From Dehalococcoidia bacterium (GTDB lineage Bacteria; Chloroflexota; Dehalococcoidia; Lucifugimonadales; UBA6952): a DNA stretch of 64,000 bases. The notes beneath the pieces were generated by a model, which saw only the letters and a list, made by a program, of their open reading frames with translations, made no database searches and was not told where the DNA came from. The stretch's first letter is position 1. Each line of letters begins with the position of its first letter. The translations under genes were made by a program, and so were the position numbers. The DNA lies in NCBI GenBank assembly GCA_022450525.1, contig JAKUQA010000001.1, positions 87,038 to 151,037 of the forward strand, read 5' to 3'. Of the stretch, positions 5,809 to 7,038 are shown one piece after another.

Positions 5809-7038
5809 GTGGAAACAGAAATAAATATAACTTTTCAGGGAGGAACTGGTGGAAACGGATGTATTAGTTTCCGAAGAGAAAAATACGTTCCTAAAGGTGG
5901 ACCTGACGGGGGAGATGGTGGGTTTGGTGGAAGTGTTATTCTCAAAGGAACTACCGCTGAATACGACTTACGAAAAATTAAAGGTAGAAATATTATAAAA
6001 GCAGCCAGGGGAGAAGAGGGAAAAAGTAGGAAGAAAACAGGAAAAGCAGGGGAAAATAATATTATAAATGTTCCGTTGGGAACTAGGGTTAGTGACACAG
6101 TAACTGGGAAAATTATAGGAGAAATAATGGAAGAAGGGGAACAGTTATTGGTGGCTCAGGGGGGAGTTTATGGAAAAGGAAACACTCGCTTTTCTACTTC
6201 TCGAAATAAAATACCTCTTTTAGCAGAAACAGGAGGTCCTGGGGAAGAAAAAAAAGTAGTAATGGAACTTTTCCCCTTGGTAGATATTTGTGTAATGGGT
6301 GATCTTTCGGGATATGCTAAAAGTATATTTGAAAGTATAACCAATATTAACCGTGGTCAACAGAATGAAGAGGTTAATATCGCACCACATAGCCCCTTTC
6401 AGGTAAGAGAAGTAGAACTGAATTGGACTAAGTACCAAATTGGATTAATCTCTTTTTCAAATAACAATGTTGATCAGTTGCAAGAAAGCTTAAATTTAAT
6501 TAAAAGGGCCAAGGTTATAATCCTAGTTTTAGAACTTGATGAAGTTGATATAAATATTGAAAATATTGCTCAATTTTTAGCTTCAAATACTATATATACC
6601 CGTAGTCCAGAAATTACATTTATTAAGGAAGAGCTTGATTTATCAGGGGAAGAATATATTGAGCAAAAACAAGCTGAATATGTAAGCTTAATCCAGTATG
6701 AAAAAGAATCAGAAAACATAATAAGGCATATAAAAGAGAAAGCCATAAATATTTTAAATAAAGAATTTTTATACAAAAAACAATTGGAACAAAACAATGT
6801 TATTCATGCAACTGAAGAAAAAAACATAACTAAGGTTGAAAAAAACAGCGAAGGATATGTTGTTTTTAATTCTAGAGCTGAAAGACTCGTTGTGTTACCG
6901 GACCAAAGAAGTTTTGCTGCAAGAATACAATTAAGAAAAGAGCTAAATACTATGGGGGTAATAGATGCTCTTGAAAAGGCAGGGGTAAAACAAGGAGACA
7001 ATGTAAAAATAGGCAAGAAAGAGTTCATATGGGAATAA
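5809..7038 (+). CDS. obg: Obg-family protein with an intact Obg fold and OCT domain but a degenerate GTPase domain
   Basis: The N-terminus [33 protein letters not shown] is the glycine-rich Obg fold. The C-terminus ...[28 protein letters not shown] is the OCT domain. In the central region, GDLSGYAKS replaces GxxxxGKS, and no DxxG or NKxD motif is present. The gene overlaps nadD, which is conserved synteny. Confidence 0.8.
   Translation: [409 protein letters not shown]

Follow-up and report, generated by a model that had tools for sequence, protein, structure and literature searches.

The 64,000-bp stretch of Dehalococcoidia DNA analyzed here (contig JAKUQA010000001.1, positions 87,038–151,037; further referred to as the window) contains an open reading frame (ORF) for an Obg-family protein in which, as the alignments confirmed, all five nucleotide-binding motifs of the GTPase (G) domain, G1–G5, are replaced or deleted. 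Further in this study the gene is referred to as obg*. On balance, we favor the explanation that obg* is the vertically inherited obg gene of a low-GC (~35%) SAR202/Dehalococcoidia lineage, whose G domain decayed in place to a class-i pseudoGTPase serving as a nucleotide-blind scaffold. The best reading of its function is that of a nucleotide-independent factor of 50S subunit assembly or anti-association. Obg belongs to the small number of GTPases retained by almost all bacteria and is present in >99% of genomes outside the Candidate Phyla Radiation (CPR) (PMC12641178); it is essential in model organisms and is regarded as a checkpoint of 50S assembly under the control of GTP and ppGpp (PMC4028186).

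For the comparison of motifs, the obg* protein was aligned to its nearest relatives as well as to 68 canonical Obgs. The conservation of the motif residues in the canonical set is as follows: G, P, G, K and S of G1, 99, 100, 100, 100 and 100%; F, T and T of G2, 100, 99 and 100%; P and G of G3, 100 and 99%; N, K and D of G4, 91, 97 and 99%. The segments of the obg* protein aligned with these motifs are listed in Table 1. The former G1 loop is one residue longer than the canonical one and has no Gly before the Lys, position 170 being occupied by Ala or Thr. All 22 clade sequences have G164, D165 and K171, and S172 is Asn in P0003. At the G4 position, K-E-D-L-I is found in the subclade at 62% identity (P0005), so the Asp is not retained there. 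The Obg signature G-x-G-L-G-x-x-F-L-R-H downstream of G3 is absent as well. The identity of the central domain to canonical G domains amounts to 15%, compared to 47% among canonical pairs. An earlier note, made from the sequence of the window, claimed the loss of G1, G3 and G4; the alignments extend this loss to all five G motifs, with no P-loop family match, and reproduce its readings of individual motifs, namely GDLSGYAKS in the P-loop, FQV instead of FTT, GLISF instead of DxxG, and no NKxD. Judging by the motifs, the role of the obg* protein in ribosome assembly is probably independent of GTP.

The check by profile hidden Markov models proposed in the earlier note gave the same picture. In Pfam, no match of the obg* protein to MMR_HSR1 (PF01926), PF02421, PF00009 or any other P-loop family was found even at E≤1, and a proper alignment recovered no intact G1–G4 motif. 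A HMMER profile of residues 155–340 was run against 1.84 billion representative proteins and retrieved only the clade itself and one fragment of a clade member; hence, the degenerate form is confined to one narrow clade. A sequence search of PDB with the central domain yielded no G domain at E≤10, but only chance matches to phage portal proteins and a splicing factor. In the hhalign comparison of the central domain with canonical G domains, the E-value was 0.078, which is not significant alone; the aligned segment (72–118 vs 73–122) is in register. The statement of the earlier note that the central domain can be aligned to the Obg G domain thus holds when the alignment is anchored by the flanking domains, whereas the central domain alone has no significant similarity to G domains.

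The fold of the central domain was considered at the level of predicted structure. The AlphaFold2 model of the full protein, based on a 73-sequence alignment, has a mean predicted local distance difference test score (pLDDT) of 81 and a predicted template modeling score (pTM) of 0.74, with most of the central domain at approximately 66–86 and values <50 at residues 181–193, in the former switch I region. The order of elements in the central domain is beta1-alpha1-beta2-beta3-alpha2-beta4-alpha3-beta5-(hairpin)-alpha5, with Y169–T178 in helix alpha-1. A Foldseek search with this model placed Obg structures first (1UDX, 1LNZ, 5M04, 7BL2, mitochondrial MTG2, GTPBP10), followed by small GTPases. 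Since the alignment behind the full-length model is dominated by canonical Obgs, a control model of the central domain alone was built from five clade sequences. This model is of low confidence (pLDDT 62, pTM 0.63) but reproduces the order of elements; almost all its Foldseek matches are G domains (MnmE, Rab, Rho, Nog1, HflX) with template modeling scores (TM) of about 0.45–0.5. Both models predict a G-like fold for the central domain. The obg* protein and Chloroflexi Obgs also have in common a set of in-register residues (LELxPLVD, PF197, W206, GLI, R233).

These data bear on the possibility that an unrelated insert, similar in size, took the place of the G domain, which would agree with the absence of any significant sequence match of the central domain to a G domain. 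We consider such a replacement very improbable. The length and boundaries of the central domain are the same as those of the G domain, the sole segment aligned by hhalign is in register, and partly eroded intermediates exist among the nearest relatives (see below). Decay in place is much likelier than a domain swap because of the in-register residues shared with Chloroflexi Obgs and because the clade-only model has the strand order of G domains and matches them.

The domains flanking the central one are well preserved. The N-terminal domain matches PF01018 (GTP1_OBG) with residues 5–154 (E = 4.4e-48, positions 4–153 of the 155-position profile), and the C-terminal OCT (Obg C-terminal, DUF1967) domain matches PF09269 with residues 341–408 (E = 1.6e-12). 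The canonical glycine-rich Obg fold and the OCT domain, both recognized in the earlier note, are thus supported, and the ORF lies exactly at the position given there. The OCT domain occurs in a subset of the Obg family (the type found in Firmicutes, Thermus and Chloroflexi). Its model TIGR03595 scores 44.6 bits with the cut-off of 37.65 and is the sole NCBIfam model passed by the obg* protein. Three ObgE/CgtA equivalog models (TIGR02729, NF008955, NF008956) were also scored, and the protein is far under all the cut-offs: 210 vs 406 bits, 171 vs 280 bits (TIGR02729) and 168 vs 300 bits. TIGR02729 is one of the marker models used in bacterial phylogenomics and in completeness estimates, and with such a score the lineage may be counted as lacking this marker. 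The top sequence matches of the obg* protein in PDB are ObgE from Escherichia coli and the Obgs from Thermus thermophilus and Bacillus subtilis; the significant alignment with ObgE ends at the former P-loop. The N-terminal domain is on average 45% identical to those of canonical Obgs, compared to 53% among canonical members. The public names of the protein are "Obg family GTPase CgtA [SAR202 cluster bacterium]" (MQG51327.1) and "hypothetical protein [Chloroflexi bacterium]" (MBA66996.1), and neither of them is accurate.

The degenerate form is conserved within the clade. Exactly the same protein is found in 86 blocks of the public assembly collection, and its 90% cluster contains 112 member sequences. 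Five database clusters represent the 409-residue form (99, 80, 78, 78 and 62% identity), and PF01926 is absent from all of them. All 22 distinct clade sequences, down to 62% identity, are exactly 409 residues long, and the central domains of five representatives from both subclades align without gaps. Comparison of six clade genes revealed no stop codons and no indels. The ratio of nonsynonymous to synonymous substitution rates (dN/dS), calculated for these genes by the Nei–Gojobori method, is 0.03–0.05 for both the N-terminal and the OCT domain and 0.13–0.25 for the central domain. Correspondingly, 71% of sites in the N-terminal domain, 74% in the OCT domain and 26% in the central domain are invariant across the 22 sequences. 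The best-kept piece of the central domain coincides with a predicted beta2-beta3 hairpin (Table 1); its W206 is common to the obg* clade and the sister Chloroflexi Obgs.

The gene is also transcribed. Contigs from four marine or subsurface metatranscriptomes cover positions 5956–6647, from the N-terminal domain into the degenerate one, and other metatranscriptome contigs span positions 6804–7537 across the overlap with the downstream nadD gene, which indicates co-transcription. The identity of the contigs to the window is at least 95% (mostly at least 99%). Libraries of this type can hold some DNA. A scan of positions 5450–8400 for promoters and terminators was uninformative, as shuffled sequence yielded at least as many sites. 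Purifying selection together with transcription shows that obg* encodes a working protein and is not a decaying gene. An assembly error or a dead gene is refuted by the identical protein in 86 assembly blocks, the 22 intact variants, dN/dS far below 1 in all domains, and transcription, and we assign it a negligible probability. AT-mutational drift as the sole cause of the motif loss was also rejected. In the very same genomes both flanking domains, including the N-terminal one with its many glycines and dense motifs, have hardly changed, and EF-G is normal, so AT drift alone does not account for the loss.

The obg* clade is placed in SAR202/Dehalococcoidia, is marine and abundant, and its loci have GC content of 32–36%. 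For the assignment of positional orthology, the gyrB/tsaD/dnaA block (12928..18655) was used as a set of origin-proximal markers; the same markers are found beside canonical obg in loci L008, L014 and L016. The gene order in the clade loci is S10-fusA-S7-S12 ... hflC-hflK, obg*-nadD-phosphoribosyltransferase, MaoC-like, F420H2-reductase-like, PrpD, gyrB, tsaD ... dnaA, fmt, and in the window this order extends beyond fmt to L25, ThiF, PALP, a regulator, amt, glnA, glnA and gltB. The locus of the canonical Chloroflexi Obg P0009 (L008) reads PALP-ThiF-...-L25-fmt-dnaA-obg-nadD-phosphoribosyltransferase-gyrB, that of the sister Obg P0143 (L014) reads gltB-glnA-glnA-regulator-...-PALP-ThiF-L25-fmt-dnaA-obg-nadD-...-phosphoribosyltransferase-gyrB-tsaD-...-Band_7, and the canonical SAR202 Obg P0179 (L016) is encoded in the order dnaA-obg-nadD. 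The obg-nadD-phosphoribosyltransferase order is the same in L004–L008 and L012–L015. Since the same gene set surrounds dnaA, one rearrangement apart, obg* resides in the ancestral obg locus. By position, this supports the orthology of obg* to the canonical obg genes of Chloroflexi and SAR202, in agreement with the earlier note: both the obg-nadD context and the dnaA/gyrB neighborhood match those of the P0009, P0179 and P0143 loci. The loci compared with the window were L004–L008 and L012–L017.

The position of the gene is important for weighing another explanation, namely that the essential GTP-dependent function is carried out by another, canonical obg in the genome, possibly gained by horizontal transfer, while obg* is an additional copy that either specialized or is decaying and acts as a constitutive 50S-silencing or anti-association factor competing for the peptidyl transferase center (PTC) site. 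We consider this rather unlikely, though it deserves more weight than any other rival. It agrees with the G domain alone evolving approximately five times faster than its flanks, as expected if the switch were redundant, and the genome sequence covered in the search for a second obg comprises the 64-kb window and related loci of ~20 kb. However, in every clade member the ancestral dnaA/obg-nadD locus is occupied by the degenerate copy and not by a canonical one, and Obg is normally single-copy. In the N-terminal domain, identity to non-clade proteins reaches ~52% at most; hence, there is no recent duplicate. Four canonical Obgs compared by tblastn with the window, L001 and L002 retrieved only the known gene. 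A search of the protein database with the G-domain profile of the nearest relatives gave no low-GC-type sequence among the best 120 matches, which is a weak test, as short partial Obgs dominate these matches. A metagenome scan with the canonical G-domain alignment yielded 80 loci, five of them with GC content <0.38; all five belong to other Obg lineages or phyla and share no neighbors with the window. P0179, an abundant canonical SAR202 Obg from the Tara data with GC content of 0.43, was considered as a candidate second copy and rejected, since it is adjoined by its own dnaA and nadD and thus is the Obg of another organism. Our estimate that the degenerate protein is the only Obg of this abundant free-living ocean bacterium falls a little short of an even chance; the essential role of Obg would then reside in the Obg fold (and OCT), without a nucleotide switch or ppGpp sensing.

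The survey of relatives proposed in the earlier note showed that the degeneration is shared by the five 409-residue clusters and that their nearest outgroups are partly eroded. A neighbor-joining tree was built using only columns of the N-terminal and OCT domains. The obg* clade itself has 100% bootstrap support; together with Obgs of two partly eroded kinds it forms a group supported by 68% bootstrap, with canonical P0007 and P0009 outside. Obgs of the first kind (P0008, P0010, P0143 and P0144; 418 residues, contigs with GC content of 49%) keep G1, G2 and G3, but NKxD is replaced by M-GKE, S-GTD or I-GRE, and SA by LNK, VSN or LNN; P0143 is encoded at 10001–11257 of L014 and 9460–10716 of L015. 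Judging by its motifs, this sister group may be an Obg with changed nucleotide specificity, which would be interesting in its own right. The second kind is P0006 (422 residues), a singleton cluster from a single 2.5-kb ENA contig. It has SLPSAGKS, PFST and "EVPS" in place of ExPG, so that the glycine of G3 is lost, and keeps NKVD and ISA. Its partial erosion thus follows another pattern than that of the first kind, although this may come from a sequencing error. The GC content along the series is 58% in L008, 49% in L014 and 35% in the obg* clade, which suggests a stepwise decay of the G motifs tracking the falling GC content. Taken together, these data suggest that selection on the nucleotide switch was relaxed across the whole branch, with the obg* clade as its end-point. 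The graded erosion is a lead and not a firm result, because the grouping has 68% support and P0006 is a singleton.

The sister group also provides a plausible route to altered specificity, as it kept G1–G3 and lost only the base-specificity motifs; YchF, an ATPase of the Obg family, exemplifies such a change. One more alternative is that the central domain of the obg* protein binds ATP, (p)ppGpp or another phosphate ligand via a remodeled site, G164-D165/K171-S172, and still serves as a switch or a sensor. The invariance of G164, D165 and K171 in the 22 sequences is consistent with such a site, and so is the position of K171-S172, which opens predicted helix alpha-1 as GK[ST] does in canonical proteins. 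On the other hand, the loop has an additional residue and no Gly before the Lys (Ala or Thr at 170), S172 is replaced by Asn in P0003, the motifs for Mg and gamma-phosphate, G2 (T-T) and G3 (DxxG), are deleted or replaced, the GxGLGxxFLRH signature is gone, and the domain is not detected by any P-loop profile. Given this, we regard a non-canonical nucleotide binder as improbable.

Decay in place to a nucleotide-blind scaffold agrees with the retention of most residues that contact rRNA in ObgE. In the structure of the E. coli 50S-ObgE complex, the N-terminal domain mimics the A-site tRNA and contacts H89–H93, the contacts being made by R24, R25, K27, K31, R76, K81, R82, R136 and R139; binding is almost abolished in the K27E/K31E and R136G/R139G mutants (PMC4028186). 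The G domain bridges the sarcin-ricin loop (SRL) and the stalk base, and nucleotides and ppGpp tune binding and anti-association (PMC4028186). Seven of these nine residues are kept as basic in the obg* protein (R22, R23, K25, K29, R74, K79 and K134, corresponding to R24, R25, K27, K31, R76, K81 and R136, respectively), and Ala and Leu are found in place of R82 and R139. The 23S rRNA of the organism has a canonical SRL at 54345. Therefore, from the retained residues we infer 50S binding at the PTC, and we likewise infer the loss of nucleotide binding, passive release and the status of the sole Obg in the cell. The glycine-rich N-terminal domain would insert into the PTC helices (H89–H93) of the maturing 50S subunit, chaperone the rRNA, hold the place and counteract subunit association. 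The central domain may be a rigid spacer or docking body that keeps only shape and spacing, presumably docked between the SRL and the L7/L12 stalk base, while the OCT domain would retain its own function. Loading and release would not be gated by GTP, GDP or (p)ppGpp, but would be set by intrinsic affinity, 50S maturation or other factors.

Several points weigh against this explanation. The function of Obg in model bacteria is tied to guanine nucleotides and ppGpp (PMC4028186), and a nucleotide-free sole Obg would be unprecedented. The location of K171-S172 in the model, at the N-terminus of helix alpha-1 like the canonical GK[ST], may mark a vestigial phosphate site. The full-length model draws on an alignment made up mostly of canonical Obgs, and the clade-only model is of low confidence (pLDDT 62, TM about 0.5). 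In the deepest pairs dS is about 1, which is near saturation, although less diverged pairs (dS 0.4–0.5) give the same picture. Finally, a canonical obg gained by horizontal transfer would escape the searches, which were aimed at low-GC canonical relatives.

Among known systems, the obg* protein is closest to Obg/CgtA/ObgE (B. subtilis 1LNZ; T. thermophilus 1UDX, with OCT; E. coli 4CSU/7BL2). It has the same architecture of the Obg fold, central and OCT domains, the gene occupies the same position beside nadD and dnaA, the basic residues contacting the PTC are mostly kept, and Obgs are its top matches by both sequence and fold. It differs in the loss of G1–G5, in the central domain invisible to P-loop models and in the equivalog scores below the cut-offs, and, given the motif loss, it is probably free of the GTP/GDP/ppGpp regulation central to the ObgE model (PMC4028186). 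By analogy, the closest functional counterpart may be yeast Tsr1, an inactive GTPase mimic and placeholder on pre-40S particles (PMC4895721). Tsr1 can be likened to the obg* protein as an assembly factor with a GTPase-like architecture that has no residues for GTP binding or hydrolysis and blocks premature use of the subunit; however, it is a eukaryotic protein of the small subunit, related to EF-Tu/SelB and not homologous to Obg, whereas in obg* the inactive form is recent and belongs to a universally conserved bacterial family whose other members are active.

Class-i pseudoGTPases have the G fold, bind no nucleotide and have no catalytic activity, as exemplified by the pseudoGTPase domain (psGD) of AAGAB (PMC12490416). 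This class is defined biochemically and structurally; by sequence, the obg* protein would fit it, with its degenerate G motifs and a G-like fold that is predicted. The examples named in PMC12490416 are mostly eukaryotic signaling proteins or assembly chaperones, and none is an Obg. In the literature searched, no paper was found that connects Obg to pseudoGTPases or to Dehalococcoidia. YchF/Ola1, a P-loop protein of the Obg family, has a changed G4 and uses ATP. It demonstrates that a G4 change is possible inside the Obg superfamily, which is relevant to P0008 and P0143 with their lost NKxD and retained G1–G3; however, YchF keeps a working P-loop and switch regions, and the obg* protein does not. 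Some classes of CPR/Patescibacteria have no obgE (PMC12641178). Thus, the canonical GTPase cycle of Obg is dispensable in some lineages, as possibly in the obg* clade; however, the CPR lineages have ultra-small, symbiont-like cells and lack the whole gene, whereas in the free-living planktonic obg* clade the gene is kept under strong constraint and only the switch is lost.

If the proposed decay is correct, obg* is a natural separation-of-function allele, selected and transcribed without G motifs, which makes it testable which functions of Obg need the nucleotide cycle. If, moreover, obg* encodes the only Obg of the cell, the SAR202-related Obgs without G4/G5 or without G3 would be living intermediates of the transition to a switchless Obg. 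The gene may also show how slow-growing streamlined oligotrophs simplify the control of ribosome assembly.

The coordinates of obg*, its domains and former motifs, and the neighboring genes are given in Table 1.

Table 1. Features of the obg* gene and its neighborhood (positions in the window).
Feature	Position	Strand	Basis or remarks
obg* (Obg-family protein, degenerate G domain)	5809..7038	+	ORF list; GTG start, 409 residues; stop codon 7036–7038
N-terminal Obg fold, PTC-binding module, residues 1–157	5809..6279	+	PF01018
Central G-domain remnant and linker, residues 158–340	6280..6828	+	
Former G1/P-loop: GxPNAGKST replaced by G164-D-L-S-G-Y-A-K-S172	6298..6324	+	Alignments
Former G2/switch I: YPFTT replaced by 8-residue insertion and SPFQV, residues 187–199	6367..6405	+	Alignments
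Best-kept central piece, F-Q-x-R-E-V-E-x-N-W-x-K-x4-L-I-S, residues 197–215, predicted beta2-beta3 hairpin	6397..6453	+	60% invariant
Former G3/switch II: [D/E]xPGLIEGA replaced by GLISF	6442..6456	+	4-residue deletion takes out [D/E]-x-P-G
Former G4: NKxD replaced by KEELD	6625..6639	+	Alignment
Former G5: [I/V]-S-A replaced by Y-E-K	6694..6702	+	Alignment
OCT (DUF1967) domain, residues 341–409	6829..7035	+	PF09269
nadD (nicotinate-nucleotide adenylyltransferase-like)	7029..7616	+	PF01467, E = 1.4e-23; overlaps obg* by 10 nt
Phosphoribosyltransferase gene, third of the obg-nadD-phosphoribosyltransferase string	7616..8242	+	PF00156
hflC/hflK-like Band_7 pair, divergent from obg*	3473..5508	-	
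tRNA-Ile(GAT), intergenic region upstream of obg*	5573..5649	-	
gyrB	12928–15468	-	Pfam, ORF list
tsaD	15641–16678	+	Pfam, ORF list
183-residue ORF, unnamed	16662–17213	-	Without Pfam match on record in relatives
dnaA	17276–18655	-	Pfam, ORF list

The obg* gene has a GTG start at the codon where ATG is found in relatives. The gyrB, tsaD, dnaA and fmt genes (12928–19756) are all at most 12 kb from obg*, so the window is close to dnaA and gyrB. In the relatives represented by L008, L014 and L016, dnaA is immediately upstream of obg, whereas in the clade of the window a rearrangement put dnaA approximately 10 kb away and inverted it.

Other observations concern the remaining part of the window. 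A full-length 23S rRNA gene (51594–54592, plus strand) is directly followed by tRNA-Met(CAT) at 54680–54754. No 16S or 5S rRNA gene was found in the 64-kb window at Rfam gathering thresholds, and hence the rRNA genes appear unlinked. A sulfatase-like ORF of 548 residues (8270–9916) is located between the phosphoribosyltransferase and MaoC-like genes and has GC content of ~43% in a region of ~35%. It is absent from the same spot in L001, L002, L004–L007, L012 and L013, and metatranscriptome contigs diverge at position 8254; this looks like a strain-specific insertion. A PlsY-like (G3P_acyltransf) ORF beside hflC (2835–3260) encodes 141 residues, while its homologues in L001, L002, L004 and L012 have 122, 142, 176 and 209 residues, which may reflect start-codon choice or truncation. 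The block at 23250–35386 is devoted to nitrogen assimilation: it encodes an ammonium transporter and a glutamine-dependent NAD synthetase and also carries gltB, a gltD-like gene and two glutamine synthetase genes in tandem; its glnA-glnA-gltB part also adjoins the obg region in the sister lineage (L014).

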